Below, in pieces: positions 38,701 through 62,393 of a stretch of DNA of 64,000 bases. Made by a program: the position numbers and the translations under genes. Under the pieces are notes generated by a model that was not told the origin of the DNA, searched no databases, and saw only the letters and a program-made list of their open reading frames with translations. Origin of the DNA: a virus. Position 1 is the stretch's first letter, and the number at the start of each line of letters is the position of its first letter. The stretch spans positions 2,352 through 66,351 of the IMG/VR virus record IMGVR_UViG_3300037493_003396; one strand, given 5' to 3'.

Positions 38701-41700
38701 GAGGTGGAGTTGAGGTATATATTTTCAAGAACAACAAAAATGAGACTCGGTACGAGCCGATCAATCTGGAACAAGCTGCATCGATGGGTTGGAATCTTGA
38801 AAAATCAAAAGATATTTTAAGACGCATAACTGAAATACAGTACGCCAATCCGACTCTGGAAACAGAAAAAGGACGGAGGGATTTGGCAACTCTGGCGATG
38901 TATCAGGAGAAACTCAAGAAGATCGTCCAGCCTATTATGACAGAAAACCAAAGGCTGACACAGATTTGGAATACTGCACACGGAGTCACAGCCAAAGAAT
39001 CAGCCGCACGAAATTTAGCAGAGCGCGAGGCATTTGCTGAACAACAGAAGATGACTCAACCTATTGTCCCCAAAGAAGAAAAGGTCGGTGGAACCAAGAG
39101 AGAAATTACCCTGGCGAAAGAAGCGGCGGGGTTTAGTATTTCCAACATCAAGAAGACATTTGTTGTCGGGGAACGTCCAGAGCTTCCGGTTAAAAAAGGG
39201 AAGACCGGCATTGAAACGCTTGCTGATCAGAATTTAATTCCCCTTGCGAATCATTATGTAAAAGCAGTTAATGACCCCGAAAAGTATGGATCCCCGAAAG
39301 CAATTAAAAGAGCATTGGTAAAATCTATAATGGAAATGTACCCCAAGGGAGAAGGAAACTATATTCTCCAGAGGGCAGAAAAATACTTTGAAGTGATGGA
39401 CGCTGTTTCAGAAACTCTTGCTGAGAGAGTTCAGCCGGAATTTAAAATAGACTCCAAAGATGAGATTGCGGCGCAGAAAGAAATTCAACGAGAACAGGCG
39501 TGGATAGACCGGACACGGGCATGGCAATCAGGCGCTCAGGTAACGGCGCCGGTTGTGAAGAAGCCTGAGCCAAAGGTTATAGACAGGACGGAACCCACAA
39601 ATAGATATATCCTCCGGAGAAATGGACAGGAAATCGGCAGTGTAGATATGGATATAAACGGAGATACTATTCAAATGCACGCGTTGGTACTTCCAAGAAA
39701 AGCCCATTTGTCAGGCGTGTTGTCAAATATCTTCCGTCAGAATCCGGACGTCCAGAATATAACGATGGAAGTCAACCCCGCGGTCGGGAAAGTAGAACGA
39801 AAAGCAACCCAAATAATGGGCGGATATTTAACTACTTTGGGCGGGAAGTTTAATTTCAATCTTGATGGAAAATCAGAATATGTTTTAAATAGGGACGATC
39901 TTGGCACCGCCATTGATAACCGAGAGGAAATGGTTGTAAAACCGGAGACTCTCTACAATCAGCCAAAAGTTACTCAGGCGAATTTTGGTTTGATCGACGA
40001 CTATTTTAATTCACAGGTTCTTTCTCCGGAGGACGTTGCTGACGTTGCGGAAGAACGAGCTGCAGAAAGATTGATCAAAGGTTTGAAACAAAACATCGAG
40101 GAAGAATTCAGCACCGAGGCAGATGTTGATGCGGTTATTGATGAAGAGGCGGCGAGTGATATTGTTGATGCTCAATTTCTAAATACATCAGTTGCCTGGC
40201 ATAAAGTTGTTTTACCCAGAACCTCTAAAGACCTTGAAAGAATGATTGACGGGGATTGGTTCAGAAACCCCACGAATATGCCGGAAGCCGAAGGCAAAAG
40301 AATGCGTAATGTTCTGAGCAATTACGGTGGAATTGCATGGCCGAAACTCAGAGAATGGTTGAGCCTCCCGTATCAGAACGCCCTAAAGTCAGTTGATTGG
40401 AAAAGTATCTATAAAATATTCGGTGTGGACAGAATCGAAAACCGAGAAAGAATGTCCCATGAATGGTTCCAGAAAGCCGAAATGTATCTGAACCGCCGGC
40501 ATTATTACAAGGCTGAAAACTACACCAAGAAACAGATGAAAGAAGCTGATTACAATATCGGGAGAGTCTTGACAATCGGTGACGAGAATCTGCGCAATAT
40601 CATGTTCGGTATTCAAGATCAAGTAAAAGAACTGGACGCGGAGATAAAACAGAGCGGTCCGTTATTTGATAATTCAGCCCTTGAAAATAAGAAAGCCGCA
40701 TTGGAAGCTGAGATCAAACGGTATCAGGACGACAGGGCTTATTCATTCGAGGAAGTTCAAGATGGTGTTGAGGATTGGGATGGAAAGAAAATAAAACTCA
40801 ACAAACTTGAGTATGGAATGTATCGGGCGGCGCGAAGTACCGAAGACCAGATATTTGCTAAGATACTGGAACACCACAAGAAAATGCTGTTCAAACAGTA
40901 CCAAAAACAGAAATGGTATAAGATTTTATCAGCGGCTTTGGGGAGTGATTTAAGTGAGGAAGATTCCCAGAAAATCATTGACAAACTGCAACTGGCATCC
41001 GGCAATAAGAGCATAGAGAAGGTCACTAAAAAACAAGTGGCTGTGAAATTACAAAATATATTCAAACAGATTGACAAGAGCTTTAAAGAGAAAGACAAGT
41101 CATTTGAGCAATGGGATGTGCTGAATACTTATAAGGAAATATCCGGTGCATTGAATAAAGAATTTACAGAATTGCGAACCATGATTTCTGCATTGGCACC
41201 GAGTCTGACGGGCGCAGAGTTAGACCAAGCTGTGAAAGAAATATTTGTTGCTTACCAAAGAACACTCCCACGGTTAAAGAAGCTCCGTGACCTCCGGAAT
41301 AACTGGAATAACTGGCCAGGCTTCTTCCCGAGAAAACGTAAGCAAGGTGCCGTAAAAATGCAGATGTTTGAAGAATATGCAACAGCGGCCGGCGTGATAA
41401 AAAAGAGAGAAATGTTCTCCACGATGTTCAATTCGCCAGGAGAGGCAGAAAGTATTTACGGGGATTTATTAGACCGTTACGGGGTGATGGTCGATGGTAA
41501 AAAGACCCTTCCCGGGAAATACAAGTTCGAATATCCTTTTGTTTCCAAAACGGCAGAGGGTTCCTTCGATGGAATGAAAGACTTTAACTTACAGGCTCTT
41601 TTGGACTCAGCCTTTGATAATATGCAGGCAAGTGGGAGCCAGTATTTTGACGCTCAGGGTAATAAGGTTGATTTAAAAGGTGAAGTTTGGGACGCCGCCT

Positions 41701-43559
41701 TTGATGCGATCGCCGGACAGTTTCAGGCGAGAGGCGCTGCAGCTCATGGAATCCACCGTAAACAGGCAGTCGGTGACAAAGCTATTAAAGGCTATTTGGA
41801 AGAAGAACACGACCAAATATTGATTGATCATATCACGGCGATGGCTGGCGTTCTCACAAAACAAGAAGCGGCTTATGACGCGATGGAAGCCATGGGAAAT
41901 CTTAAAGACAAGACCCGGGCTCCCGAATTACGAAAATACATAAGCGGACAACTCCGAAACGATACTGAATTGGATAGAGTTTCTGCTAAGTTAAGATCAT
42001 TGGCTTTCTTATGGTATCTTGGTGGAATGATCAAATCCGCAGCGGTAAACTCTACTCAGCCGATAATTGTTGGTATCCCCCTACTTGACAGATACATGCG
42101 TGAGAAGGGTATAAAGGCGAGTGGATCTATTGCTCAATTAAATATGTCAAGAATCATTGCACAAAATCCCTCTCTTATAACGAAAGACCCCAGCGAATGG
42201 GGTGAGATGAAGGGCGTGTCGGGCTGGTTGAGAAGATATATCGACGAAAGTATTATTTCCGGTAACATGGCCGCGCAACATATCCGATTTATCAAGGGGC
42301 AGACAAGCGGTTGGGGGAGAGTTTGGAATAAAACCTTTGACACTTTGGCGACTCCGTTTGCCATGGTGGAGAAATTTAACCGTGTTTCATCAGGGTCCGC
42401 ATTATTTGAAGTTGCGTTTGAGCATTACATGAAAAACAAGACAACTGAAAGCAACGAGACCATTTATGAAATGGCGAAGAATGATGCCAACAAATTCATT
42501 AATGACGTCCATTACCCAATCGGGAAACACAACCTTCCTATTCCGGCGCAAGGTGGGGATATTGCTTCAATCGGAATGAAAACAGCCTATACATTCAGGA
42601 CGTTTACCCATAACTTCCTGTTGAATCAGTTCAATCTTTTGAGGTCAGCGGCGCAGTATTCTATAAACCCAAAGGGTAATTTAACAGCCGAGCAACAGAA
42701 ACAGGTGAATATCCAAGCAACCAACGATTTAAAGACCTTTATCCACACCATGGCGCTCTTGGCGATGTTTGGTGGAATGATGGGATTACCGTTTCTAAAA
42801 GATATATTCGACTGGTATGAAGAAAAGTTCGGTTTTTCGCCCAAGGAATGGGTCAGGCAGAGTTTAAGAGGAGTGGGTGGGGAAACGCTCGAGGTTCTGG
42901 GGATGGGTGGCATACCGGCGTTCCTGGGGGGAAATATAAGCGGTTCCTTAGCAATTGGAGTCCCCTTCATGGGAGATCAGACAGCTTTAGAATCCATCGG
43001 TGGAGTTTATGCCGGCTTAGCTAAGAAAATTGTAATGGCAGGGCAAGCCGCCGCAAGGGGTGACGTTTATAGAATGTCCGCCAATCTTACTCCGGAGTTT
43101 CTGAGAGGTCCGATAGTGGCTTTGACGGAGTCTGATTTTGGCAAAGAAGTTGTCGGTTCGCGGGGAATTGCAACCACACCACAGGGGATGCCCTCTTATG
43201 CTTCTACCGGAGAGCCCTTATCTTACAAAGGCGGAGAAGCGGTTCTTAAAGCGGTAGGTTTTCAGCCGACCCGAATAGCCAAAGAAAGAGAAATAGAACA
43301 ATCTGTTAAGAAACAGGTCATGTGGGCGAACGAACAGAAGAAGAACATTTCTGAAAGTTACCGGATTGACCGAATCCAGAACAATAAAGATGCCTTAAAG
43401 ACCATGATGAAGGACATTAAAGAATTGAATCAGAAGATCGCCGATAGGAAAATACCGGTTCCGAGGGCTTCTATGTCCACAATTATCAAGAGTTCAATCG
43501 CAACAAAAAGTCTCCAAAAGAGAAGGGAATTGGCAAGGCGCCTCGAACTAGCTGAATAG
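32745..43559 (+). CDS. giant polyvalent internal virion protein (DdrB-like ParB, ART-PolyVal-like, zincin-like, PLxRFG-type C-terminus)
   Basis: NPFDQFD N-term; TSHD..LQER..GAP..VEAGNSR; VFHGT..GYDGVVY..ADPVTYDEKGQIVPLSERFN; GHELSH..EEFAAD; AFLWYLGG..SAAVN.TQ. Confidence 0.85.
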   Translation: MANPFDQFDTDNSDNATNPSANPFDKFDTDAEGSSSLLRRGIADPLVGLARGFAVGIPETLTGLADIATLGKFGIGVDQLGEMAGVSKPLEHVFAKGREAFDQYLTPETRQAQQEVSETKGFFPQVGAVLQRPSVLAQVVADSIPGMVGGSLVANLGMKALGKGAVKIAPKLLAEAAGATKVAEGMPAAQKLAIESIDAIKKANTSKAVLTGGLAEIGVTAGQNAEQTRQQTPNDELTAEQAAIISASAVVTGLIGYGSGKFSQYLGLADPQTMIAMAVNRGVPRTAAEGVTWKESVKNFLKTMAKEGLLEELPQSIQEQAAQNIALGKPIDDGVWEAGAMGMLAGMAQGGGAHVIQGLLSKDPHHQEIERQISETDPEGQVKIAPPLEAFNMEGLTANNVVVEPEPVSTVPKLQPGAPEEDVLNSLSQNIEQRAISTDALINLVQTYPAGSPVSNMAQAEIDRRSPVVGAEIQNNIDILSLKNIEIRDVLGSPDKLESYAKKNNILVSEAQKKLETALSGNVVKITDLKEKAVSSQAATRPQNIVSGEVEGVKAQGKEDTIESKFGEVKIKYGLADANDVLTSHDENGVANKNYDQSLQERPANDPTFATRVQERAGSRMKVNLLGMAPTVTDGAPQIYKDMVVEAGNSRAEAIRFTYRMARAGNQEYVAAADKYKKWLADRAESFGFTREQVEAIPEPMLVRERTTEVTDRAKWARETNVPQADKQNQIEIAKRYSSEIDESMLAKLDMGEEGNVAAASNYGFLQALSTKIGSNEARGMNAGQKISSEFAQLVEMSLFQKAFGNIKGGETFIELLAQAQDSEINPLVNSLLASVEPYVKLNSLYANDPNNITPFVIRAVSILKGALKNHKSGKDATIPEQNAVFKQLLQAGLMDTDSSYVKELAIDLEALKRTPKKLREFLKDLARRSYEDIKAQSSPGLFKMEPLAKEEIYETVAKEHQLNEESRQNKIRRLTRNDQGALVKTKSNTGEGGKESGDRGSGETSRGETQKLKTSPAVNYHYIIQVQIPKYADKNGKLKEVKTQGWSDGDAIKNVRGQLARELGVSIQSIPTDKNLYKIISKETGRPADLRASAAAFHGGHKFDKFKLDQETARTGAIAKMKGAQNVDQKYLELAKEPIKNKVALQQMADAAAKKAGYTTEVFHGTTKFILSNETDETGAYRVKPRNLHVFRGGHFGTENQARQHVAAQGYSKKLEGTILRLYMKDDTKLMRSDDIKGGGWDTIVRDARAKGYDGVVYKNEYEPNAPLSDFVENYEKYRAEALSKIPKDIDVMDIDPEIMESLSKGAFQTILFSKSQLWLIARGEIREGGDQNFADSYTLVDSSKVKLADPVTYDEKGQIVPLSERFNKNRPEIFASVTGIDKRLLEQGLKGNKINDQDMAMYEKTLLNRLTSLTKEDFSVVGEDLERVVKSITKKGEFYERSATQIAEGGISGIPADHPRQRRALEANEGLIARSPEIFNPAIIEGIKKKRLAQGAIALLKVEQARVQAKKADLTGRWKSDRTGSYALQNEITVANNRLADIAKTISDIEALVEPALEVDTQAHKTNAEAFELGRKNGYDVIFMKDNYHTLNAFINTTRKQIFVATGGKFTALQLVGHELSHVGVDGHASNLETQALIDKKSPAVKQYWEALNEAAGVKFSESAMLEEFAADLQGGIKENFGVNLDEGLIQQSTVYGMTDMLTNIPKEVDVIARGPTYKEVTKPEIKSAHQQTLDLVVNHDTKPMAFGKSIDEYEKATGKKFPFRELVEALDKKYIEVSYDSSKMSNKNAFADFSDNTIYINTKKFKEGDWKGSKTDTHLESELAFRGVMALVETAETGKPTQDLIRLRSELTSFKQSLAPFLSQASPEATRIYGLISKSGDVRNMMGFMTNSDFAGWLNSIPDYSSAKPGGSFWSRLKDIVLKYVGKITATGRTKLDELSSIMDKYVLLGKGENILAEARRYESPKDFIRATSYRNTSETTVRGGVEVYIFKNNKNETRYEPINLEQAASMGWNLEKSKDILRRITEIQYANPTLETEKGRRDLATLAMYQEKLKKIVQPIMTENQRLTQIWNTAHGVTAKESAARNLAEREAFAEQQKMTQPIVPKEEKVGGTKREITLAKEAAGFSISNIKKTFVVGERPELPVKKGKTGIETLADQNLIPLANHYVKAVNDPEKYGSPKAIKRALVKSIMEMYPKGEGNYILQRAEKYFEVMDAVSETLAERVQPEFKIDSKDEIAAQKEIQREQAWIDRTRAWQSGAQVTAPVVKKPEPKVIDRTEPTNRYILRRNGQEIGSVDMDINGDTIQMHALVLPRKAHLSGVLSNIFRQNPDVQNITMEVNPAVGKVERKATQIMGGYLTTLGGKFNFNLDGKSEYVLNRDDLGTAIDNREEMVVKPETLYNQPKVTQANFGLIDDYFNSQVLSPEDVADVAEERAAERLIKGLKQNIEEEFSTEADVDAVIDEEAASDIVDAQFLNTSVAWHKVVLPRTSKDLERMIDGDWFRNPTNMPEAEGKRMRNVLSNYGGIAWPKLREWLSLPYQNALKSVDWKSIYKIFGVDRIENRERMSHEWFQKAEMYLNRRHYYKAENYTKKQMKEADYNIGRVLTIGDENLRNIMFGIQDQVKELDAEIKQSGPLFDNSALENKKAALEAEIKRYQDDRAYSFEEVQDGVEDWDGKKIKLNKLEYGMYRAARSTEDQIFAKILEHHKKMLFKQYQKQKWYKILSAALGSDLSEEDSQKIIDKLQLASGNKSIEKVTKKQVAVKLQNIFKQIDKSFKEKDKSFEQWDVLNTYKEISGALNKEFTELRTMISALAPSLTGAELDQAVKEIFVAYQRTLPRLKKLRDLRNNWNNWPGFFPRKRKQGAVKMQMFEEYATAAGVIKKREMFSTMFNSPGEAESIYGDLLDRYGVMVDGKKTLPGKYKFEYPFVSKTAEGSFDGMKDFNLQALLDSAFDNMQASGSQYFDAQGNKVDLKGEVWDAAFDAIAGQFQARGAAAHGIHRKQAVGDKAIKGYLEEEHDQILIDHITAMAGVLTKQEAAYDAMEAMGNLKDKTRAPELRKYISGQLRNDTELDRVSAKLRSLAFLWYLGGMIKSAAVNSTQPIIVGIPLLDRYMREKGIKASGSIAQLNMSRIIAQNPSLITKDPSEWGEMKGVSGWLRRYIDESIISGNMAAQHIRFIKGQTSGWGRVWNKTFDTLATPFAMVEKFNRVSSGSALFEVAFEHYMKNKTTESNETIYEMAKNDANKFINDVHYPIGKHNLPIPAQGGDIASIGMKTAYTFRTFTHNFLLNQFNLLRSAAQYSINPKGNLTAEQQKQVNIQATNDLKTFIHTMALLAMFGGMMGLPFLKDIFDWYEEKFGFSPKEWVRQSLRGVGGETLEVLGMGGIPAFLGGNISGSLAIGVPFMGDQTALESIGGVYAGLAKKIVMAGQAAARGDVYRMSANLTPEFLRGPIVALTESDFGKEVVGSRGIATTPQGMPSYASTGEPLSYKGGEAVLKAVGFQPTRIAKEREIEQSVKKQVMWANEQKKNISESYRIDRIQNNKDALKTMMKDIKELNQKIADRKIPVPRASMSTIIKSSIATKSLQKRRELARRLELAE

Positions 43560-51781: not shown

Positions 51782-52411
51782 ATGGCTGATGATATAGGAG
51801 AAAAAGCTTTAACAGTAGTCAATGAGGCACGGGGTATTGTGATTAATACCAACGAAGATTTAGAGAGAGCCATTGCGCTATGGGAGGCATTGGACACGGC
51901 TAAGAAAACACTCGCTAAGAGATACAACGGACTGATCGCAAAGGCTTACGATCTCTGGAAATTCAATCTTGCTGAGAAAGCCCAGTATTATGTTCCTGTG
52001 ACAGAAGTTGCCGCCATTGTAAAACTGCGGATAGCCGAATACAAAAGGCTGAAAGAAGAAGAACGTAAGGTTGAAGAATCCCGCCTTTATACGGAAGCTG
52101 TAAAACAAACAGAAGAAATGAGATTACGGCAGGCGGAAGAAAATCCCGATCAGGCAGAGGAGATTCTTGCCGAGCCGATACTTGTGGCTCCGGTGATTAT
52201 TCCGAAAGACATTCCAACGGGTGGTCCGGTTTCCAGAGAAATATGGGATTGTGAAGTTGTTGATTTTCCCGCCCTGATAAAAGCTGTAGCGGAGGGAAGT
52301 GTTGATGAGTTGGCTCTTGAGCCCAACACAAAGTTTTTAAAACAGCAGGCGACCAGTTTCAAATCAAAATTGAGTATAGCCGGCTGTAAACCTGTATCGA
52401 GGTTAGTATGA
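51782..52411 (+). CDS. coiled-coil phage protein of recombination module
   Basis: Long helix then W..EVVDF..L motif. Confidence 0.7.
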   Translation: MADDIGEKALTVVNEARGIVINTNEDLERAIALWEALDTAKKTLAKRYNGLIAKAYDLWKFNLAEKAQYYVPVTEVAAIVKLRIAEYKRLKEEERKVEESRLYTEAVKQTEEMRLRQAEENPDQAEEILAEPILVAPVIIPKDIPTGGPVSREIWDCEVVDFPALIKAVAEGSVDELALEPNTKFLKQQATSFKSKLSIAGCKPVSRLV

Positions 52412-53481
52412 TATCTTATACAAAGCCATCTATAACTACAGCAGAAGCAATAAGTGTTCAAACCGCAATGGTGAACGATGTTAGCAACCATTGTTACGAC
52501 AGCATTATTACCTTTGAACGCAACTTTGCCAAATATCTTGGGGTTAAATATGCCCATGCTACTTCATCATGCACCGGAGCATTACATCTTGGATTGGCGG
52601 CTCTTGGAATCGGGCAGAGTGATGAGGTTATTCTTGCCGATACAAATTGGATAGCCACCGCCGCGCCGATAGTTTATCTTGGGGCAAAGCCTGTATTTGT
52701 GGACATAGATCCGTTGACTTGGACAATAAACCCAGGGAAAATCGCCGTGACCAAAAAAACCAAAGCTATCATCGCGACTCACCTTTACGGAAATGTCTGC
52801 CGGATGAAGGAACTTTTAAGAATAGGTAAGAAATACGGAATACCTGTTATTGAGGATGCCGCAGAAGCGATCGGTTCTTCTTATTACGGTCAGAAGTGTG
52901 GGAGCATGGGTAAATTCGGAGTGTTCAGTTTCCACGGAACCAAGACAATGACCACCGGAGAGGGTGGGATGTTCGTTACCAACGACAAAAAGCTTTATGA
53001 GAAAGTCGTGCAGTTAAACAACCACGGCAGGGCGCCACAGGATAAACAGTTTAGACCATCGATTATCGGGTACAAATACAAGATGTCAAATCTTCAGGCG
53101 GCGCTCGGGTGTGCGCAACTGAATAGGATTGATGAATTGGTCAGAAGAAAAAGAGAAATATTTTATGATTACGCCAATCTTCTTCCGACTAAAATCCATC
53201 TTAATTTTGTCCAGGACAACTGCCAAAGTGGATATTGGATGCCCACAATCCAAAGCGATAAAGTATGCCGTGATAAGTTTATAGAAGCGTTCGCGATAGC
53301 CGGCATAGACGCGCGGGTTTTCTTTTATCCTCTTTCAAGTTTGCCGATGTTCAAAAAACAACCGAGGAACCACCATGCTTATGATATTTGCCGGAGAGCA
53401 TTTAATCTCCCCAGTTACCACGATATGACATTTGAAGATCAGGTTAAGGTAGCCAACGTAGTTAAGGAGGTTTTAAAGTGA
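52408..53481 (+). CDS. DegT/DnrJ/EryC1/StrS PLP sugar aminotransferase (perosamine synthase-like)
   Basis: SSCTGALHL, IEDAAEA, FSFHGTKTMTTGEGG. Confidence 0.95.
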   Translation: MISYTKPSITTAEAISVQTAMVNDVSNHCYDSIITFERNFAKYLGVKYAHATSSCTGALHLGLAALGIGQSDEVILADTNWIATAAPIVYLGAKPVFVDIDPLTWTINPGKIAVTKKTKAIIATHLYGNVCRMKELLRIGKKYGIPVIEDAAEAIGSSYYGQKCGSMGKFGVFSFHGTKTMTTGEGGMFVTNDKKLYEKVVQLNNHGRAPQDKQFRPSIIGYKYKMSNLQAALGCAQLNRIDELVRRKREIFYDYANLLPTKIHLNFVQDNCQSGYWMPTIQSDKVCRDKFIEAFAIAGIDARVFFYPLSSLPMFKKQPRNHHAYDICRRAFNLPSYHDMTFEDQVKVANVVKEVLK

Positions 53482-54191
53482 AATTACTTTTGATGGCTCA
53501 CGACATTGTGGGATTTAAAATTACCAAATGGCTGGCAGAAAACTACCGAACCGATCTTTATTTAGTTGTGGTGAAAGACAAAAGCCCTGTTGGTGATTTG
53601 TGCGCTGAGTGGGGGATTCCGTGGTCAACCCAAGAACCTCCGTATGGAGAGTTTGATCTTGGTATAACTGCCTGGTGGCCGGACATAATAAAAGAACCGC
53701 TTTTATCCCTTCCAAAAAACGGGTGGATAAATACACATCCCAGTTATTTACCTTATTGCAGGGGCAAACATTCTTCTTTCTGGGCGATAGTCGAACAAGT
53801 CCCTTATGGGGTGAGCCTCAACAAAATAGGTGAGGGAATTGATGATGGTCCGGTTGTGTCCCAAAGAAAAATACCGATAACATGGGAAGATACCGGAGAA
53901 ACTCTTTATCTAAAAGCCTGTAAAGAAATGGTTGACCTATTTATTTCAACTTATCCGAAGATAAGGACATTGGATTTTCCTACTACGGAACAGCGGGTAT
54001 CTTTTCGTGGGAGCTATCATCATTCACAAGATTTAGTTGGTGGGAAGTTTCTTGATACTTATGGGGAGGATAGCGTAAAAGATATTTTAAACAAAATCCG
54101 CGCAGGGACTTTTACCGGAAGACCGGCTTGTTGGTTTGAAGAAGATGGAATTTCTTATGAAGTAAGGGTTGATATAAGGAGGGTAAAATGA
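53478..54191 (+). CDS. sugar N-formyltransferase
   Basis: INTHPSYLPYCRG, GIDDGPV. Confidence 0.88.
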   Translation: MKLLLMAHDIVGFKITKWLAENYRTDLYLVVVKDKSPVGDLCAEWGIPWSTQEPPYGEFDLGITAWWPDIIKEPLLSLPKNGWINTHPSYLPYCRGKHSSFWAIVEQVPYGVSLNKIGEGIDDGPVVSQRKIPITWEDTGETLYLKACKEMVDLFISTYPKIRTLDFPTTEQRVSFRGSYHHSQDLVGGKFLDTYGEDSVKDILNKIRAGTFTGRPACWFEEDGISYEVRVDIRRVK

Positions 54192-54868
54192 ATATGATCA
54201 CGGGAATAAAGTTCCCATTTCCAACCCGCAAGATCGTCTTGCCGATTATGACGGAAAGCAAATTTATCGGTTATCTTGTTCCGGTAGATCATCAAATGTG
54301 CAATTCACGTTTTATATCTGAAGTCTTCAGCCAATGGCGGAACAAACACATGGATTGCTTTTTAAGCAGTTTTCCCGCGACTCCACAACGGACGAGAAAT
54401 TGGCTGAATAATGTTTATCTCCCTGACCCTGACCGGATCTTATTCGCGGGATATTCTTATCCTGAATTTGAATTAGTTTGCCATTATGGAATGGACAACG
54501 TAACAGATACGCACGCTGAAATGGATAATGGTTTAAGGGGTAACCCTACCGGCGCAAAAGGATTTATGACCTATATGGAAATAGCCCTTCTTTCTTTAAT
54601 GTTTGGGATGACATCAATCCACACGGTCAATCTTTATATTTTGTCCGACAATGAGCCGGTAAAAAGATGGCATGAAAGAGTTGGGTACACTTATGGCAAA
54701 GTCCACAAGCTGACGGAAGAAGTCAAGGGCGATACAACATATTTAGTTCCTGACGGGAAAGGAAAGCCGGTTGATGTTGAATATTGGGAAATGGTTATTA
54801 CCAAAGAACAACTTGTAGCAAAACACCCGTGGGTGAAAAATACATACGCATGGAGGGACAATGGATAA
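54188..54868 (+). CDS. GNAT-family N-acyltransferase (PseH-like)
   Basis: WRN..TRNWL, EMDNGLRG, LYILSDNEPVKRWHERVGY. Confidence 0.75.
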   Translation: MNMITGIKFPFPTRKIVLPIMTESKFIGYLVPVDHQMCNSRFISEVFSQWRNKHMDCFLSSFPATPQRTRNWLNNVYLPDPDRILFAGYSYPEFELVCHYGMDNVTDTHAEMDNGLRGNPTGAKGFMTYMEIALLSLMFGMTSIHTVNLYILSDNEPVKRWHERVGYTYGKVHKLTEEVKGDTTYLVPDGKGKPVDVEYWEMVITKEQLVAKHPWVKNTYAWRDNG

Positions 54869-55526
54869 AAGGGCTCTGCAATTTATTAACGACACCGCAA
54901 AAGAAAAATACAGTTATAACTTTGAATGGCTTGGGCGACCAATAATCCAATTTCCACAGGATATGATCGGCATTCAAGAAGTGATCTGGAGAGTCAAACC
55001 TGATTATGTGATTGAAACAGGTGTAGCTCATGGCGGAGGACTTATATTTTATGCCAGTATTCTTGAAGCAATGGGGCATGGTGAGGTCATAGGAATAGAT
55101 ATAGACATCCGCGCCCATAACCTTGAAGCCATCGCCAAACACCGCATGAGCAAACGAATAACACTATATGAAGGCAGCAGCACGAACCCCGAACTATTTA
55201 AAAGAGTTTCTAAAAAGGTCGGCAAGAAATCAACAGTAATGGTTATTTTGGATTCCAACCATACCCACGCCCATGTATATGATGAACTTCTGATGTATTC
55301 GGATTTAGTTTCAAAGGGCTCGTACCTGATCGTCCTTGATACGATAATTCAGTTTATGCCCCCAGGGTCTTTCCCTGATCGCCCGTGGGATTATAACGAC
55401 AACCCGTGGACAGCAGTTCAATTTTTTCTCGGGCAGACAGATCTGTTTGAAGTGGATGAGAAACTTGAAAAGGAATTGATGATAACCACCGCGCCAGGAG
55501 GTTATCTCCGCAGAATTGATAAGTAA
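54861..55526 (+). CDS. CmcI/cephalosporin hydroxylase-like O-methyltransferase
   Basis: WLGRPIIQFPQD, IETGVAHGG, VILDSNHTHAHV. Confidence 0.92.
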   Translation: MDKRALQFINDTAKEKYSYNFEWLGRPIIQFPQDMIGIQEVIWRVKPDYVIETGVAHGGGLIFYASILEAMGHGEVIGIDIDIRAHNLEAIAKHRMSKRITLYEGSSTNPELFKRVSKKVGKKSTVMVILDSNHTHAHVYDELLMYSDLVSKGSYLIVLDTIIQFMPPGSFPDRPWDYNDNPWTAVQFFLGQTDLFEVDEKLEKELMITTAPGGYLRRIDK

Positions 55527-55555
55527 CGGTGCATACAGCACCAGAAGGAGGGAGT

Positions 55556-55930
55556 ATGAACTTAGAATTAATATATAAGTATATGGGGTGGTGTGAGAAA
55601 TGCAAAAAGTGCAATCCTAATATTCATCATAATAGAGAAGTATGCGCTCGTGATGAAATGGATTCTAATAAGGCATGGGAATGTGTGCAGGAGATGGAGA
55701 AACAAGGTCACGCTGATGAATTTGAAACATACCTATATACTTGTTGGTGTGATGCCAAAGTACTACAATGTCAATTAGTATGGGAGAAGAACCCCACCAA
55801 CTTCTTCTCATGTATGGGAGCATGGCTTGAAGGGAGAGAAGATAAGTGTGAGGTTAATCCTTTTTTAAGTTGTGTATGTTCTAAAGGGACTAAATGCTGC
55901 GATAAACAGCACCAGAAGGAGGGAGTATGA
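55556..55930 (+). CDS. hypothetical protein flanked by 26-bp direct repeats
   Basis: ORF track; GGAGGGAG RBS. Confidence 0.7.
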   Translation: MNLELIYKYMGWCEKCKKCNPNIHHNREVCARDEMDSNKAWECVQEMEKQGHADEFETYLYTCWCDAKVLQCQLVWEKNPTNFFSCMGAWLEGREDKCEVNPFLSCVCSKGTKCCDKQHQKEGV

Positions 55931-56100
55931 ATAAAGACTTTAAACTTAACAATATGGAAAAGAATGAACTTATCGAAACATATTATAAATTCCGAAAGCG
56001 ATTATGGGATATAGTCGGGGAGTGTATGTTAGGGAAGACCGATTCAGATAAGTTATTGGAAATTGAAAAGTTGTTGTTGGATATAGAGAAGGAGGGATGA
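55927..56100 (+). CDS. small hypothetical protein (57 aa)
   Basis: Hand-translated MNKDFKLNNM..., same RBS repeat. Confidence 0.6.
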   Translation: MNKDFKLNNMEKNELIETYYKFRKRLWDIVGECMLGKTDSDKLLEIEKLLLDIEKEG

Positions 56101-56166
56101 TATGACAGATATTAAATCTATGAGGAATGTAATTCATCAGATGTGATGTCCCGTGTTTGTTCATGT

Positions 56167-56221
56167 CACTATCGTATAGATCAGCGGATGCGTAGCAGTC
56201 CGCTGGATTGATAGGTTATAA
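56167..56221 (-). mobile_element. attC-like recombination site 1
   Basis: Minus strand TTATAAC-5-AATCCAGC-hairpin-GCTGATC-5-GATAGTG. Confidence 0.6.
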
Positions 56222-56244
56222 ATTTTATTGAGGATTTTTGCAAC

Positions 56245-57039
56245 ATGTTAATAAATGACCACTTTCAGAATTTCAAGGTTTACGGAATACCCAAAGCGCA
56301 GCTTGTAATTGCTGACATACCTTATAACGTGGGTATAAACGCTTATGGTTCAAATCCGTCTTGGTACATTGACGGCGACAACAAGAACGGACAGAGCAAA
56401 CTTGCAGGGACAGGCTTTTTTGACACGGATAAGGATTTTAAACCAGCCGAGTTTATGCACTTTTGCAGTAAGATGTTGAGGCCAGAACCAAAAGAAAAAG
56501 GCGCAGCGCCGTGCATGATTGTCTTTTGTGAATTTGAACAACAATTTTATCTTATTGAGTTAGCCCGTAAATACGGAATAAATAATTACATCAACTTGGT
56601 TTTCAGGAAAAACTTTTCCGCACAGGTATTAAAGGCAAATATGCGGGTTGTTGGAAATGCTGAATACGCGCTTTTGCTTTACCGTGACAAATTGCCGAAG
56701 TTTAACAATAACGGAAAAATGATTTTCAATGTGATGGATTGGACAAAAGACACAGGAAGCGAAAAAATACACCCGACACAGAAACCAGTTGGCCTTTTAA
56801 AACACCTTATACAAATTTTTACAGACGAGGGCGATGTTGTGATTGACCCCGTTGCGGGTAGTGCTTCAACACTTATCGCCGCGATTGAATGCAATAGAAA
56901 AGCCTTTGGGTTTGAGATTAAAAAAGATTTTTATGCCAAAGCAAAGCAATGGGTAGATCGCACGGAGGCGCAAGGCCAATTGTTTAAAGGGCATCATCGG
57001 CGTGAATATAAGCATGGAGTGCAACAGGTTATTGTTTGA
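56245..57039 (+). CDS. DNA N6-A/N4-C methyltransferase (beta class)
   Basis: DIPY catalytic motif, HPTQKPV, DPVAGSAST, GFEIK. Confidence 0.93.
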   Translation: MLINDHFQNFKVYGIPKAQLVIADIPYNVGINAYGSNPSWYIDGDNKNGQSKLAGTGFFDTDKDFKPAEFMHFCSKMLRPEPKEKGAAPCMIVFCEFEQQFYLIELARKYGINNYINLVFRKNFSAQVLKANMRVVGNAEYALLLYRDKLPKFNNNGKMIFNVMDWTKDTGSEKIHPTQKPVGLLKHLIQIFTDEGDVVIDPVAGSASTLIAAIECNRKAFGFEIKKDFYAKAKQWVDRTEAQGQLFKGHHRREYKHGVQQVIV

Positions 57040-57042
57040 TAT

Positions 57043-57090
57043 TTATAACGACAAGTTGAGCCGCTTGTCGGCTGGATTGACTGGTTATTA
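57043..57090 (-). mobile_element. attC-like recombination site 2
   Basis: Minus strand TAATAAC-5-AATCCAGC-CGACAAGCG-GCTCAAC-5-GTTATAA. Confidence 0.6.
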
Positions 57091-57102
57091 AAGGAGTTTA
57101 TT

Positions 57103-57885
57103 ATGTTACAAGTAGTCATACTTTGTGGTGGTACCGGAACTAGACTTAAAGAAATGACAGAATTTACGCCCAAAGCTTTAATATCCATCGGTGGAAAACC
57201 CGTGATCTTCCATATAATGAAACACTATTCTTCATTCGGGTTTAATAGTTTTGTCTTGGCTTTGGGGTATAAACAGGAAGCCTTTAAGAACTACTTTGCC
57301 CATTACAATGAGATAAATTACGATCTATTTCTTGATGCCCAGGGGCTTCGTGGTCAATATCAGATACACGATAAAGATGTTTATGCAACCGGATATGATA
57401 TTGTACTTTCCGATACCGGAGAAAATACTTTAAAGGGTGGACGGCTGAAAAGGATAGAAAAATACATTACCGGAGATACCTTTATGCTGACCTACGGGGA
57501 CGCTGTTTCCGATGTGGACATACCTGAGCTTTTAAATTTCCACAAAAACCACGGCAAGTTGATCACGATTACCGGAGTAAATCCAAGACCGAGATTCGGG
57601 GAGGTAATTCATCAGGACGGCAGGGTGCTTCAATTCAAAGAAAAACAACAGAACTCCACCATGATAAACGGCGGGTTTATGGTAATGAACCGAGGGATAT
57701 TTGATTATTTAGATAATGATTGCGATCTTGAACTCGGACCATTTGAAAGGTTAGTTGAAAAAGAAGAATTGATGGTATATCACCACACAGGATTTTGGCG
57801 GTGTATGGACACGATGAATGACATGGTAGAATTAAATAAAATGTGGGATGAGGAAACACAATCTTTTAGGAGGGAATATGTTTAA
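57103..57885 (+). CDS. rfbF: glucose-1-phosphate cytidylyltransferase
   Basis: ILCGGTGTRLKEMT..PK, DTGENTLKGGRLKR, FMLTYGD, GFWRCMDT. Confidence 0.93.
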   Translation: MLQVVILCGGTGTRLKEMTEFTPKALISIGGKPVIFHIMKHYSSFGFNSFVLALGYKQEAFKNYFAHYNEINYDLFLDAQGLRGQYQIHDKDVYATGYDIVLSDTGENTLKGGRLKRIEKYITGDTFMLTYGDAVSDVDIPELLNFHKNHGKLITITGVNPRPRFGEVIHQDGRVLQFKEKQQNSTMINGGFMVMNRGIFDYLDNDCDLELGPFERLVEKEELMVYHHTGFWRCMDTMNDMVELNKMWDEETQSFRREYV

Positions 57886-57929
57886 AATAATCCTTGACTA
57901 TAATACATTTATTATGATAAGGAGTATTC

Positions 57930-58094
57930 ATGGAAATAACAATCAATAAACTCAAGTGCCGGAGGTGTTCCCATGAATGGATTGCTCGAAAAAGCAAGGT
58001 TGCAGTTTGCCCACGATGCCACAGTTCTTGCTGGAATAGAGAACGGAAGCGTGCGGGTAATACCCCTAACGCAAGGTTTGGTAACGGTGGTTGA
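57930..58094 (+). CDS. small zinc-ribbon protein (54 aa)
   Basis: Hand-translated MEITINKLKCRRCSHEW..VCPRCHSSCWN, AAGGAG RBS. Confidence 0.65.
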   Translation: MEITINKLKCRRCSHEWIARKSKVAVCPRCHSSCWNRERKRAGNTPNARFGNGG

Positions 58095-58382
58095 TGCCGA
58101 TGATAGTAATTTTTCTGATTGGAAGTGGCATATCCGTAAGGGGAGATATACGGTGTACCCAGCGCGATGGGTAGATGTTGTGGGGAGAGCCACCAAGACA
58201 CCACTTACTTTACATAGAGATTCAATAAATGGCATGCCCAAATAAGTTACGGAGGCAAGGTGCGGCATTGTGGCTATTATTTAACCGCCGAAGAAGCCGC
58301 GCTTGCATATGATAAACAATCTTTATTGCTATGGGGAGAGAATGCTTTTTTAAATTTCCCAGAAAGGAAAGAGAATGTATAG
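58051..58382 (+). pseudogene. HNH-AP2 endonuclease remnant lacking the HNH core
   Basis: IPLTQG..VD..WKWH..LHR then, in another frame, KWHAQI..GYYLTAEEAALAYD..WGENAFLNFP. Confidence 0.75.
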
Positions 58383-59400
58383 TGGAATTTATAAAAATAA
58401 AATCGTTTTAGTAACGGGGTGTTGTGGCTTCAAAGCAAGCTGGGTCTGTTGTTGGCTTGAGAAACTTGGAGCTACTGTTATAGAGTACGGGCATAATCCG
58501 AATACGGACCCCAACCACTATACCTTATTAGGTAGGAAGAGTTTTGGTAATGATGACACATTAGACAAAGAAAGATTGAAAAAGGTATTCTCAGAATGTA
58601 AACCGGATATTATTTTCCATTTCGCCGCAAAAGCTATCGTTGCAAGATCATTTAGAGAGCCACTATTGACCATAGAAAACAATGTCCAGGGTGCGGCAAA
58701 TGTTCTTGAGGTTGCGCGTTTAAGCTCAACTAAAGGGGCTGTTGTGGTTACAAGTGATAAGGTTTATAAAGACGAGAATTGGATATGGGGCTATCGGGAA
58801 AATGACACCCTGGGAGGCTACGACCCCTACTCAACATCAAAGGTCTGTATTGAACACATAATCGAAATGTACCGTCATAGTTTCGGAATGAACATCGCAA
58901 CTGCTCGCGCCGGAAATGTTATCGGTGGGGGAGACTGGTCTGAAAAGAGATTAATCCCTGATATTGTAAAAGCAACTGCAGAAGGGAAAAAAGTAATAAT
59001 CAAGTCGCCTAATGCTACAAGACCGTGGCAGCACATATTGAGTGCGCTTGACGGATATCTGCTTTTAGGGGAACAAATCCTCAAAGGCAATTACGTAAAC
59101 TCAGCGTGGAATTTCGGACCAACCGAAGAAATGAGTGTCATTGAAGTCTTAAAGGTCGCAAAAGAACATTGGAGCGAGATCGAATGGGAGATAACCCCAC
59201 AAGAAACCCATCCCCATATGGTAAACCTTTTAAAAATCGATTCTACCAAAGCCCGAAAGTTTTTAGGCTGGAACCCGCCGTGGAATCTTGAGGAAACCAT
59301 CGCGCGGACAATTAACTGGTACCGGAGTTATTACCAAGAGGGAAGTATTTTAACTCAATCAGATATTTGTGATTATGAACGGAGGGATTATGGGTTATAA
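58375..59400 (+). CDS. rfbG: CDP-glucose 4,6-dehydratase
   Basis: VTGCCGFKASW, TSDKVY, GGYDPYSTSK, ARAGNVIGGGDW, RPWQH. Confidence 0.93.
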   Translation: MYSGIYKNKIVLVTGCCGFKASWVCCWLEKLGATVIEYGHNPNTDPNHYTLLGRKSFGNDDTLDKERLKKVFSECKPDIIFHFAAKAIVARSFREPLLTIENNVQGAANVLEVARLSSTKGAVVVTSDKVYKDENWIWGYRENDTLGGYDPYSTSKVCIEHIIEMYRHSFGMNIATARAGNVIGGGDWSEKRLIPDIVKATAEGKKVIIKSPNATRPWQHILSALDGYLLLGEQILKGNYVNSAWNFGPTEEMSVIEVLKVAKEHWSEIEWEITPQETHPHMVNLLKIDSTKARKFLGWNPPWNLEETIARTINWYRSYYQEGSILTQSDICDYERRDYGL

Positions 59401-60652
59401 CTGTAATTTTTGTAATGAGCCCTTAGTCCATATCATGGCTGATCTCGGATTCCAACCTCCGAGCAATTCGTTATTGACCAATTTGGAAGAGCCGGAAACC
59501 CACTATCCATTAACGGCTTATGTTTGTGAGAAATGTTGGCTTGCCCAAGTGCCGGAAAGTAAGAAAGCAACCGAGATATTCACCGAGGATTATCCTTATT
59601 TCAGTTCCCAAAGTCCGGCAAATGTATCTCACGCCAAAAAATATGTGGATATGATATGCGAGAGGTTTAAATTGGGGGAAAGACAATGGGATGGTATTTT
59701 GGGTGTTCATAAATGTTTTAAAAAGACCAAAGTTTTAGAGATCGGCAGTAATGATGGTTATATGCTCCAATTCTTCAAAGAGAGGGCCTGTGAAGTATTG
59801 GGAATTGATCCAGCGATGGAACCGGCTAAGGTGGCGATTGGTAAGGGAATACCAACAGAGATCACCTTTTTCCAATATTATATGCACTCTTCAAGTCCGA
59901 CATGGGACACAAAATTCGATCTTATCTGTGGAATCAATGTTCTTGCCCATCAACCTGATATAAACGACTTTGTCAAAGGGTTAAAGATGGTTCTTGCACC
60001 GGAGGGGATAATCACTTTTGAATTTCCCCATTTAATGAGAACAATAGAAGGAATGCAGTTTGATCAAATCTATGCGGAACATTTTTCTTATTTCTCATTT
60101 GTAACTGTGCGAGAAATATTTAGAAAACACGGCTTGGAAATATTTGATGTTGACTATCTTCGCGAGCACGGTGGCAGTTTGAGGATATATGCCCAACATG
60201 ATGCCGGAATACAAACAGAAGCCCCAGAGGTCAGGGAGTTAATCGGCTTTGAACGGGATGCCGGAATGTTCACCGCTGAATATTATACTGACTTCAATAA
60301 GAAGGTTCAGATCATAAAAGACGACTTTATGGAATGGCTCTATAACAGCCGGAGCTTGGGTGAAACAACAATCGCTTATGGCGCAGCGGCAAAAGGCAAC
60401 ACATTCCTAAACTATTGCGGAATCAGGTCGGATTTGATACCATGCGTAATTGATAAGTCTCCCCATAAACAAGGGAAATATCTGCCAGGATCTCATATTA
60501 AGATCGTCAGTGAAGAAGAAGGGATGAAGTTAAGACCGGATTATGTTTTAATTCTTCCGTGGAACCTTGAAAAAGAAATATCCGAACAGTTAAAATACAT
60601 ATCGGAATGGGGTGGAAAAACAATTTCAGCGATGACAGGATGGAGGTTTTAA
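59390..60652 (+). CDS. NDP-hexose C-methyltransferase
   Basis: N-terminal CxxC/CxxC zinc domain, EIGSNDG, EHFSYFS, HGGSLR, YGAAAKGNT. Confidence 0.92.
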   Translation: MGYNCNFCNEPLVHIMADLGFQPPSNSLLTNLEEPETHYPLTAYVCEKCWLAQVPESKKATEIFTEDYPYFSSQSPANVSHAKKYVDMICERFKLGERQWDGILGVHKCFKKTKVLEIGSNDGYMLQFFKERACEVLGIDPAMEPAKVAIGKGIPTEITFFQYYMHSSSPTWDTKFDLICGINVLAHQPDINDFVKGLKMVLAPEGIITFEFPHLMRTIEGMQFDQIYAEHFSYFSFVTVREIFRKHGLEIFDVDYLREHGGSLRIYAQHDAGIQTEAPEVRELIGFERDAGMFTAEYYTDFNKKVQIIKDDFMEWLYNSRSLGETTIAYGAAAKGNTFLNYCGIRSDLIPCVIDKSPHKQGKYLPGSHIKIVSEEEGMKLRPDYVLILPWNLEKEISEQLKYISEWGGKTISAMTGWRF

Positions 60653-61062
60653 TGGAAAAGAAAACAAGATTTGAGATCAGTACCGATGAATTGAACGCTC
60701 GGATGGAGAAACAAAAAGAGCAAAGGGATGAGCCTGTGACCAAAGCCGTAAGGATTTTGGAAGCGGCGGTGGATAAGGTATTGACGAAACTGGGAGTAAA
60801 TGTTGATTTGGTTGATTCTATTCCGGCGCAAATGGACGCTCTTGGGATAGTAATGACCGAAAATACCGAAGAATTAACTCCGCAGTTGAACGGGTTTTTC
60901 ATTTATACATCTAAATATTATATAATGACTGAACCTGATCTGATACCTTACGCGTGGGTTGGCGCGGCGAGGATTGGACAGGACGGACGATGCTTTTGTG
61001 ACATTCAATATTTCCAAGACAATAGATTGGAAGAAACAGGCGGTATTAAATTAGTGGGCTGA
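60652..61062 (+). CDS. hypothetical protein
   Basis: GGAGG RBS, ORF track. Confidence 0.7.
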   Translation: MEKKTRFEISTDELNARMEKQKEQRDEPVTKAVRILEAAVDKVLTKLGVNVDLVDSIPAQMDALGIVMTENTEELTPQLNGFFIYTSKYYIMTEPDLIPYAWVGAARIGQDGRCFCDIQYFQDNRLEETGGIKLVG

Positions 61063-61157
61063 CACGCGAGGATTAAACAGCCCACCTTTGGCGCTCTCGT
61101 AATGTATTACAAGTGGTGTTGTGATGGGTTATTGAGAGCGCCTTTAGAAAGGATTTT

Positions 61158-62393
61158 ATGAGTAGAGTTCTTCTCGTAGTTAAATCAAAAACCATTGAAA
61201 CGCTCGGGACAATGTATATCTCCGCAGTTGTTAAGCAGACAGGGAATGATTGTAAAATAGTCACTATAGATGAAGCCCCTGTAATGACAAAAATATGGAA
61301 GCCGGAGATTATTGGTTATTCAATAATGACCGGAGATCAGGAAAAATTTAGGATTCTTAATTGGGCGTTAAAAGGTATCGGTATTATGGGAAGTTTCTCT
61401 TTTTATTCCATCGCTGGAAACTGTCACCCTACCTTTTTCCCCGAAGATTGCGATTGGACAGATGTGATTATAAAAGGGGAAGCTGAGCAACAGTTTGCGG
61501 ATTTACTCCAATCAGGGTTAAAATACCCTGACCTGGATTCTATTCCATATCCTGATAGAACTGATTTCCCCGACATGAAGATAAGGGATTTTATCACTTC
61601 TAGGGGCTGTCCGAATAATTGTACATATTGTTTCAATGAGTTATGGGCGGAAGCGTGTGGACAAAAAACAGTCCGAGTCAGATCGGTAAGAAACGTAATT
61701 AAAGAGGTTGAGCAAGTCAACCCTAAATTTGCCTACTTTCAAGATTCCTGTTTCGGGGTTTCGACTAAATGGCTCAAAGAGTTCTCCGAGAAATACCCTA
61801 AGATTCCTTTCCATTGTCATTTAAGACCCGTCCAAGTAACAAACGAGAGGGCTGCATACCTCCACGATTCGGGTTGTGTGAGTGTCAGGATAGCTCTTGA
61901 AACGGCAAGCGATAGATTAAGAATTCTTATCGGCAGACCAAAGACCTCAAATGAAGAAGCCTATAATGCCTCTAAAATCCTCCGGAAGTGGGGTATTAAG
62001 TTGATGATACAAAATATGCTCGGCTTAATGACTTCGACCATAGAGGACGATTTAAACACTTTAGAGGCCAATATTCGTTGCCGTCCGGATTACGGGTGGT
62101 GTTCTATATTCAGCCCTTACCCTGGCACCAAATTAGGCGATCTCTGCAAGGCTGAGGGTTATTATACAGGGGATTACTCCGAGATTTCTGATTCCTTTTT
62201 TGATACATCGGTGCTTAATTTTGATGAAAAGCACAAAGAGCAGTTGGTTTGCCTGCAAAGGATTTTTGCTTTGTGTGTGGAAGCAAGGTATTTACCAAAG
62301 GTAGAGGAATTGACTTTAGAGAATTTCCCGAAGTTGGTTCATAAAATCTGCCGCAAGGTGGGTGATGATCGATTATATGGGGGTGTAATTTAA
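61158..62393 (+). CDS. B12-binding radical SAM enzyme
   Basis: LGTMYISA, HPTFFPE, GEAE, TSRGCPNNCTYC, PYPGT. Confidence 0.92.
   Translation: MSRVLLVVKSKTIETLGTMYISAVVKQTGNDCKIVTIDEAPVMTKIWKPEIIGYSIMTGDQEKFRILNWALKGIGIMGSFSFYSIAGNCHPTFFPEDCDWTDVIIKGEAEQQFADLLQSGLKYPDLDSIPYPDRTDFPDMKIRDFITSRGCPNNCTYCFNELWAEACGQKTVRVRSVRNVIKEVEQVNPKFAYFQDSCFGVSTKWLKEFSEKYPKIPFHCHLRPVQVTNERAAYLHDSGCVSVRIALETASDRLRILIGRPKTSNEEAYNASKILRKWGIKLMIQNMLGLMTSTIEDDLNTLEANIRCRPDYGWCSIFSPYPGTKLGDLCKAEGYYTGDYSEISDSFFDTSVLNFDEKHKEQLVCLQRIFALCVEARYLPKVEELTLENFPKLVHKICRKVGDDRLYGGVI

Follow-up and report, generated by a model that had tools for sequence, protein, structure and literature searches.

A methylase gene between two attC-like sites

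The stretch of DNA analysed in this work (the window) covers 64 kb of the 66,351-base IMG/VR virus record IMGVR_UViG_3300037493_003396, which has an estimated completeness of 79% and encodes a terminase, a portal-type connector and a major head protein. A long sugar-nucleotide operon runs on its plus strand, in which Pfam matches identified an aminotransferase, a formyltransferase, a CmcI-type methyltransferase, a nucleotidyltransferase, a dehydratase and a C-methyltransferase. Our subject is a DNA methylase gene within this operon and the two flanking sites, which resemble the attC sites of integron cassettes. The interval from the CmcI-type gene to the nucleotidyltransferase gene consists of two small open reading frames (ORFs) of 133 and 57 aa, neither of which matches a Pfam family, a 145-nt gap, the methylase gene and a 63-nt gap. 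The methylase gene has the orientation of the sugar genes; DpnA (5hek) is the best solved relative of its product (E 1e-14), and prophage genes annotated as dpnA or DpnIIB display about 69% nucleotide identity with it. The first-pass annotation of this DNA had proposed a DNA methyltransferase inside the sugar cluster, as borne out by the PF01555 match listed below. Bit scores in the list come from R1, a covariance model of the site family built from 39 seed sequences, all from contigs other than the window.

51782-62393, plus strand: sugar-nucleotide cluster (DegT aminotransferase, formyltransferase, CmcI-type methyltransferase, nucleotidyltransferase, dehydratase/epimerase, C-methyltransferase)
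56245-57039, plus strand: DNA methylase gene, 264 aa, DpnA/DpnIIB-like N6-adenine type (PF01555 N6_N4, E 4.6e-25)
56166-56224, plus strand: left attC-family site (R1, 39.5 bits, E 7e-9)
57042-57093, plus strand: right attC-family site (R1, 27.1 bits, E 2.7e-5)
56215-56223, plus strand: 3' box of the left site, GTTATAAAT, 9 nt, 100% complementary to 57041-57049
57041-57049, plus strand: 5' box of the right site, ATTTATAAC, complementary to 56215-56223; this pair scores 5/5 in the family box test described below

An 18-nt core, GCTGGATTGANNGGTTAT, is present in exactly two copies in the 64 kb, within a 25-nt direct repeat of 84% identity (56198-56222 and 57067-57091) of which each copy is preceded by a G+C-rich hairpin. 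With filters off, R1 gave two significant matches in the window, both on the plus strand and both at the flanks of the methylase gene, with a next-best score of 11.1 bits (E 1.1), and a search of the whole 66,351-base record returned the same two sites alone. The sites are spaced 817 nt apart, and 9 nt separate the end of the right one from the nucleotidyltransferase start codon (57103). Read on the minus strand, the left site is TTATAAC-CTATC-AATCCAGC-centre-GCTGATC-TATAC-GATAGTG and the right site is TAATAAC-CAGTC-AATCCAGC-centre-GCTCAAC-TTGTC-GTTATAA, in agreement with the attC geometry that had been claimed for both flanks with AATCCAGC in common, and the family to which they belong has conserved AAC/GTT boxes. 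The complementarity between R' of the right site and R'' of the left site, also claimed at first pass, extends to 9 of 9 nt, and the degenerate R' (GATAGTG) recurs as ATC at the outer box of the left site. The L' assigned to the right site (GCTCAAC) did not hold up, as it pairs poorly with L''. On the plus strand the boxes of the right site read ATAAC...GTTAT, while the left site keeps GTTAT and has ATC in place of AAC; both retain a bulged-G arm, GCTG-G-ATT. The left site folds in place at -10.5 kcal/mol as DNA (z -3.6). Its centre is nearly identical to that of a site on another contig (L143), and the centre and 3' arm of the right site match those of two further contigs (L119 and L133). With 39.5 and 27.1 bits against the 50-75 bits typical of the family, both are worn members, and it is in the 5' arms that they diverge.

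A site family shared by phage contigs and bacterial integrons

When viral contigs were scanned for exact copies of the 18-nt core, 30 loci were obtained, approximately the chance number by a rough estimate, and most of them share a much longer conserved imperfect palindrome. A second pattern scan, anchored on the other half of the site, added members varying in the 3' half, and seven pattern hits without the 5' half (L101, L106, L107, L111, L114, L120 and L124), none with an R1 match, were treated as chance. In the orientation of the flanking genes, the roughly 55-60 nt consensus reads (nn)[A/C]TAAC, GCAGA, AATCAGC, a variable G+C-rich stem-loop, GCTG-G-ATT, GACNG and GTTA[T/G](nn). The 5-pair structure that RNAalifold derived from the raw MAFFT alignment was meaningless and was discarded; the consensus structure was instead named by hand and then tested against slid partners. 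In the named structure 80.1% of cells pair, compared to 25-43% with the partners slid, and compensatory changes are present, as at pair 23-50 (GC 23, CG 13, UA 1). The AAC/GTT pairs are standard in 37-38 of the 39 seed sequences and are seen across the 88 R1 matches, which come from 37 sources. Within each source all matches share a single strand, forming arrays of up to eight copies with one or a few small genes between them. The inner helix covaries (AAT/ATT, ATT/AAT, AGT/ACT; CAG/CTG, GAG/CTC, AAG/CTT, CAC/GTG), the bulged G on its 3' arm is near-invariant, and across the 88 matches the length of the centre ranges from about 8 nt to above 60 nt. On phage contigs the sites lie on the coding strand, starting at the stop codon of the preceding gene and ending 15-25 nt before the next start.

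Two further features of the family were observed. TTGAC, a -35-like hexamer, is part of the near-invariant 3' arm, and at 57077-57104 of the window a 10/12 promoter-like match built on it overlaps the right site; it is probably unused there, because its -10 part overlaps the start codon of the next gene. Nine loci (L099, L100, L112, L115, L129, L131, L134, L141 and L142) share a site variant with the centre GGGGCGGCGAAGCCGTCCC that does not differ between them anywhere from TAAC to GACGGG. Because these identical copies sit in unrelated flanks, in different samples and in two lineages of metagenome-assembled genomes (MAGs), they point to a recent spread of this variant.

Searching 185,579 species genomes with the strict site pattern yielded six contigs, all from MAGs. 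The strict pattern undercounts badly, given that R1 scans of five of those MAGs gave many copies: at least 21, at least 21, at least 1, at least 17 and at least 8, which are lower bounds with 150 candidates scored per genome. Four of the five site-bearing MAGs encode TIGR02249 integron integrases above the curated cut-off, and in two contigs the integrase gene (intI) lies next to family sites.

G044:C81: sites 329-397 and 790-849; intI 1395-2753; sites 550-1070 nt from the intI start
G043:C8: intI 22535-23479; site 24292-24374; site about 800 nt from intI

The two integrases score 407 and 497 bits, respectively, against a cut-off of 265, and both genes are directed away from the array and lie on the R1 strand, namely the strand on which R1 matches. 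In the standard integron layout intI diverges from the cassettes. Judged from sequence, the R1 strand is therefore the bottom strand of attC, since intI shares it and is expected to diverge from the cassettes. The R1 strand is also bottom-like in its bulge, because the attC sites of a Vibrio anguillarum chromosomal integron fragment within a phage record (MK672802), used as a control, have their extra bases in the 5' arm when read on the top strand, while the R1 bulge is on the 3' arm. The window sites belong to an attC family that also forms arrays beside integron integrases in bacteria.

The polarity of the genes relative to the sites was scored from ORFs of at least 45 aa with their stop codon in a box, with sites less than 200 nt from a locus end omitted. 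This stop-in-box test replaced a longest-ORF test that gave no clear answer for many intervals and was wrong on at least one (L121, in which an ORF starts within the site). Among 71 sites of viral loci, 33 have an ORF on the same strand only (5' box), 4 on the opposite strand only (3' box), 10 on both and 24 on neither; the 55 sites of MAG loci split into 2, 24, 8 and 21 in the same order (Fisher p 3e-11 for the viral versus MAG split). In one integrase-adjacent array (L132) the cassette ORFs run opposite to the R1 strand, as in a canonical integron. The window methylase lies on the bottom-like attC strand and departs from the canonical cassette layout, in which a top-strand gene is followed by its own attC. 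The first-pass statement that the methylase is antisense to the attC polarity and reads with the phage operon thus stands, with the strand fixed by the position of intI in the MAG arrays. Among the phage copies of this attC family, inverted polarity seems to be a rule.

Pfam analysis of 73 ORFs between sites, 13 of which come from MAG loci, identified four N6_N4 methylases, two Mom-family proteins (one of them with E 8.5e-4 only, below the cut-off) and one PAPS reductase, whereas most ORFs had no family. PHROGs additionally suggested a Lar-like restriction-alleviation protein and several endonucleases among the between-site ORFs. A single methylase gene fills a two-site interval in two other loci as well (L122 and L098), and in a third locus a methylase gene follows a site (L133).

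Cassette exchange and a proposed origin of the methylase cassette

In the box test, the 5 nt beyond AAC/GTT in the 3' box of one site were compared with those in the 5' box of the next, with one gapped-box match omitted. Twenty of 50 adjacent pairs proved perfectly complementary and 10 more matched at 4/5, giving a mean of 3.52 of 5. The controls gave 2.46 within sites (4/87 perfect), 2.26 for the reverse comparison and 2.10 for random pairs (114/7292 perfect, 1.6%), so that the excess in adjacent pairs has a binomial p of 2e-23. As an independent set, the MAG arrays gave 13/41 perfect adjacent pairs versus 1/54. Neighbour box complementarity is also found in the V. anguillarum control, together with a stop codon within the box and, on the top strand, additional bases in the 5' arm. 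The R'/R'' complementarity taken at first pass as the signature of an inserted cassette therefore holds family-wide (20/50), in the MAG arrays (13/41) and in the Vibrio integron. Pairing between neighbouring boxes is the circular-permutation mark of a cassette that is cut within its own site.

Breaks in homology between loci also favour the 5' box. We compiled 28 homology blocks, each of at least 80% identity and 100 nt, omitting two pairs of loci that represent the same DNA (L128/L153 and L134/L135). Sixteen of 108 internal block ends fell into a 21-nt interval at the 5' box, where 0.7% were expected, and three at the 3' box. The ends at the 5' box have offsets of +2 to +15 on the R1 strand, which agrees with a crossover at AA↓C (the arrow marks the exchange point) and is too coarse for assigning the exact bond. 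In a Propionivibrio MAG (G043), cassettes on contigs C14, C15 and C7 (L154, L155 and L158, respectively) are 93-100% identical and differ in order, with block ends at 5' boxes; the three contigs look like strain variants of one shuffled array.

These results bear on a different explanation, in which the sites act as RNA or as an intergenic regulatory hairpin, for example a processing site, a stabiliser or a terminator-like insulator, and their likeness to attC is incidental. Such a role would fit the placement of phage sites on the coding strand between a stop codon and the next start, the covarying helix, the TTGAC of the invariant 3' arm and the promoter-like match overlapping the right site. 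However, no Rfam family matches: a search of positions 55500-57600 of the window against Rfam 15 (E up to 10) gave two matches with E values of 1.9 and 4, far below the gathering scores and off the sites, and none was obtained at E up to 1 for ten loci with canonical copies. G.T pairs have no clear advantage over A.C (84 versus 64 and 48 versus 54), a T run is missing from both window sites, and there is no surplus of promoter-like sites. The pairing of boxes is kept between neighbours and not within a site, for which an RNA hairpin would have no need; the genes in bacterial arrays lie on the other strand, and sites occur beside integrase genes. Neighbour box pairing, the link to integrases, breakpoints at the box and the lack of RNA-type signals are four lines that point to DNA recombination in preference to an RNA function, which we regard as highly unlikely.

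The methylase cassette was then reconstructed with its bounds at AA↓C on the plus (bottom) strand, equivalent to G↓TT on the minus (top) strand.

56173-57048, plus strand: putative methylase cassette, 876 bp (attC core, ribosome-binding site, methylase gene, TATTTATAA)

Joining 57039-57048 to 56173-56227 gave a full-length attC fold with a 9-bp outer R helix (-25.7 kcal/mol, z -6.3, folded with RNA parameters), compared to -18.2 kcal/mol (z -3.25) for an alternative crossover and, in the same computation, -19.0 and -14.0 for the two sites in place. The core and 3' box of the left site (56173-56224) are accordingly read as the cassette's own attC, the first eight bases of ATTTATAAC (57041-57049) as the end of the cassette, TCACTAT (56166-56172) as the resident side of the junction, and the right site as a resident, partly decayed site. 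With the cassette taken as 56173-57048, all of the decay, comprising the TCACTAT box and the GACAAGTTG arm, falls to this one resident site, and the attC carried by the cassette is undamaged.

On this evidence, the methylase is most likely the cargo of an integron-type cassette (56173-57048) that sits in a partly decayed attC upstream of the nucleotidyltransferase gene. With two close attC sites and no integrase, the locus represents an attC cluster that comes without an integrase (CALIN). In the proposed course of events, a resident attC site, now partly decayed, would have lain just upstream of the nucleotidyltransferase gene, and an integron integrase from the host cell may have inserted the cassette there. 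The cassette would be bounded at AA↓C of the 5' box on the bottom strand (G↓TT on the top strand), a position that fits the family data and is presumed for the window cassette. The methylase is read with the phage operon, opposite to the usual cassette polarity, and could protect the phage DNA against host restriction. Insertion by a host integrase and an anti-restriction role had both been proposed at first pass, and both are reasonable.

A host-supplied integrase is invoked because the phage record encodes none: a PF00589 search of the 66,351-base record, estimated to be 79% complete, found no tyrosine recombinase, in line with the first-pass statement that the phage lacks an integrase. Tyrosine recombinases occur in 3 of 34 other site-bearing viral records, and in 2 of the 7 with a completeness of 90% or higher; none of the recombinases in these 34 records reaches the integron-integrase cut-off. 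A host integrase would thus be the simplest source of the recombinase. Alternatively, the sites could be recombined by another enzyme, either a phage protein whose family is unknown or an IS200/IS605-type single-strand transposase that works on hairpin ends. That five of the seven records of at least 90% completeness carry sites without a tyrosine recombinase, and that inverted gene polarity separates phage from bacterial arrays, would be in keeping with such an enzyme. However, Y1 transposases (PF01797) are present in 0/34 site-bearing viral records, which speaks against IS200/IS605 membership, and the family adjoins integron integrases with the expected polarity and crossover box, making recombination by another enzyme most improbable.

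Several observations count against a cassette inserted by an integron integrase, starting with the missing tyrosine recombinase. In the window, the right site has no attC fold in place, its minimum-energy fold being a different 7-bp hairpin, and the outer box of the left site is ATC as opposed to AAC in the family. The resident 5' arm has diverged (GACAAGTTG versus GCAGAAATC in the family), with the 3' arm and centre of the right site intact. The resident top-strand junction is G↓ATAGTG in place of G↓TT; the cassette would thus have entered a poor site, unless the site decayed afterwards. Comparison with other sequences is similarly unfavourable: near relatives of the flanking proteins were not found in viral contigs, and the best match in metagenome contigs had 50% aa identity; the nearest methylase gene shares 82% nucleotide identity in the coding part only, and R1 sites are absent from all 80 closest methylase loci. 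R1 detects nothing significant in the attC-bearing Tetrasphaera phage TJE1, the window sites being a different sequence family. Because exact patterns served to select the R1 seeds, the stretches concerned are in part invariant by design.

Some of these points would suit a history in which the cassette is real and the whole block of site, methylase and site came by homologous or illegitimate recombination from a phage or bacterial array, leaving the sites as inert relics. Both window sites are worn, the right one lacks the attC fold and the resident junction lacks GTT; moreover, the interval between the CmcI-type and nucleotidyltransferase genes is wholly different in a relative (G002), as in a generally variable spot, and the text of Qi et al. 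(PMC9892861) raises the same possibility for phage CALINs. On the other side, the 9/9 box match and the confinement of decay to one reconstructed site fit a precise crossover at the box, and homology breaks at the box throughout the family. We therefore consider transfer of the block as relics improbable, and insertion of the cassette at the box remains the preferred explanation.

It is also possible, although we advance it tentatively and with some doubt, that uncultivated phages maintain a cassette pool of their own on a genuine attC family, with every gene reversed so that the recombinogenic bottom strand codes, and with counter-defence cargo (adenine methylases, Mom, a PAPS reductase and a Lar-like protein), shuffled by host integron integrases. 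If so, this pool would be the phage counterpart of the defence genes that bacterial integrons keep in cassettes. With the polarity inverted, phage operons could read the cargo and bacterial cassettes, once captured, would stay silent; folding of the sites in transcription or replication would perhaps be promoted as well.

Relatives of the phage found by its major head protein are about 65% identical in the sugar cluster. In one of them (G002) the two sugar genes are separated by a different gene of 76 aa, without any site, whereas two others (G001 and G005, with head proteins 87% identical) carry one family site each, at a locus other than that of the window.

L146 about 1500-1560 (G001:C1:2871-2930), minus strand: G001 site, among small minus-strand genes near the left end
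L145 (G005:C1:2861-2920): G005 site, among small minus-strand genes near the left end

The otherwise syntenic cluster has a variable spot with unrelated small genes, which occupies 55529-56100 in the window (133 and 57 aa) and L094 4789-5019 in G002 (76 aa). Elsewhere in the window, a 985-aa protein with a glycosyltransferase match is encoded at 21447-24404. A 3604-aa ORF (32745-43559, plus strand) has a ddrB-like ParB domain as its sole Pfam match (residues 568-706, E 3.5e-16) and looks like a giant multi-domain 'polyvalent' virion protein; an identity as an N4-like polymerase was dropped, since Pfam gives the ddrB-ParB domain only.

Comparison with known systems

Promoter-stem-loop (PeSL) cassettes of T4-type phages move by homologous recombination between repeats that carry an early promoter. 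As in the window, repeated intergenic stem-loops flank single accessory phage genes in these cassettes and are thought to drive gene shuffling. Unlike PeSL elements, the window family has no excess of promoter-like sites, swaps box halves between neighbours, appears to break at a single fixed dinucleotide step and is linked with integron integrases.

Integrons are bacterial gene-capture devices, whose cassettes have recently been shown to store anti-phage defences. The V. anguillarum integron fragment and the MAG arrays (G044:C81 and G043:C8) resemble the phage arrays in their TAAC/GTTA boxes, 5-nt spacers, variable centre, extra base on one arm of the L helix, R'/R'' complementarity between neighbours, stop codon in the box and one or few genes between sites. 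In contrast to these bacterial arrays, the phage has no integrase, attI or Pc promoter and its gene occupies the bottom strand; with their short length, the phage sites fall near the lower limit for attC.

The closest precedent, and the sole report of attC clusters in phages, is the screen of deposited phage genomes by Qi et al. 2023 (PMC9892861), which according to its text found 21 phages with attC clusters and 17 CALINs. Virulent phages with CALINs named there include Tetrasphaera phage TJE1, Polaribacter phage P12002L and Pseudoalteromonas phage PH101; the text counts five methylases among the phage cassettes, N6_N4_Mtase among them, and reports that IntI1 recombined 5/6 phage attC sites. 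Defence cassettes in chromosomal integrons, as described in the text of a preprint (10.1101/2024.07.02.601686), are the bacterial counterpart. An integrase-less attC cluster with methylase cargo in a virulent phage is thus of a kind already published in the text of PMC9892861. The window shares with these phage CALINs, as the text presents them, at least two attC sites, no integrase, a virulent-looking phage and methylase cargo, as well as the idea of phages gaining anti-restriction genes by cassettes. TJE1 likewise carries sugar-nucleotide genes (L147 5388-10731), encoding a nucleotidyltransferase, an epimerase, a methyltransferase and a glycosyltransferase.

The differences are as follows. 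The window gene is antisense to attC, whereas the arrays of TJE1 and PH101 show the typical bacterial structure per the text of PMC9892861. Recombination by IntI1 was assayed in that study, whereas the window is known from sequence alone. A blastn search with one 59-nt canonical copy, which is not a sensitive test, returned no member of the family from 50,697 deposited phage records. No statement on inverted polarity was found in the text of Qi et al., and its supplementary tables may already record it; literature searches found no other report of this arrangement. Inverted polarity in phage copies looks new.

Set against these precedents, the locus and its family offer three new leads: one attC family common to environmental integrons and many uncultivated phages, family-wide sequence evidence of cassette exchange in the form of swapped box halves and breakpoints at the box, and a clear rule that genes in phages have the opposite polarity. 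Provided that host integrases act on the sites, phages would trade anti-restriction genes through the gene-capture machinery of their hosts.

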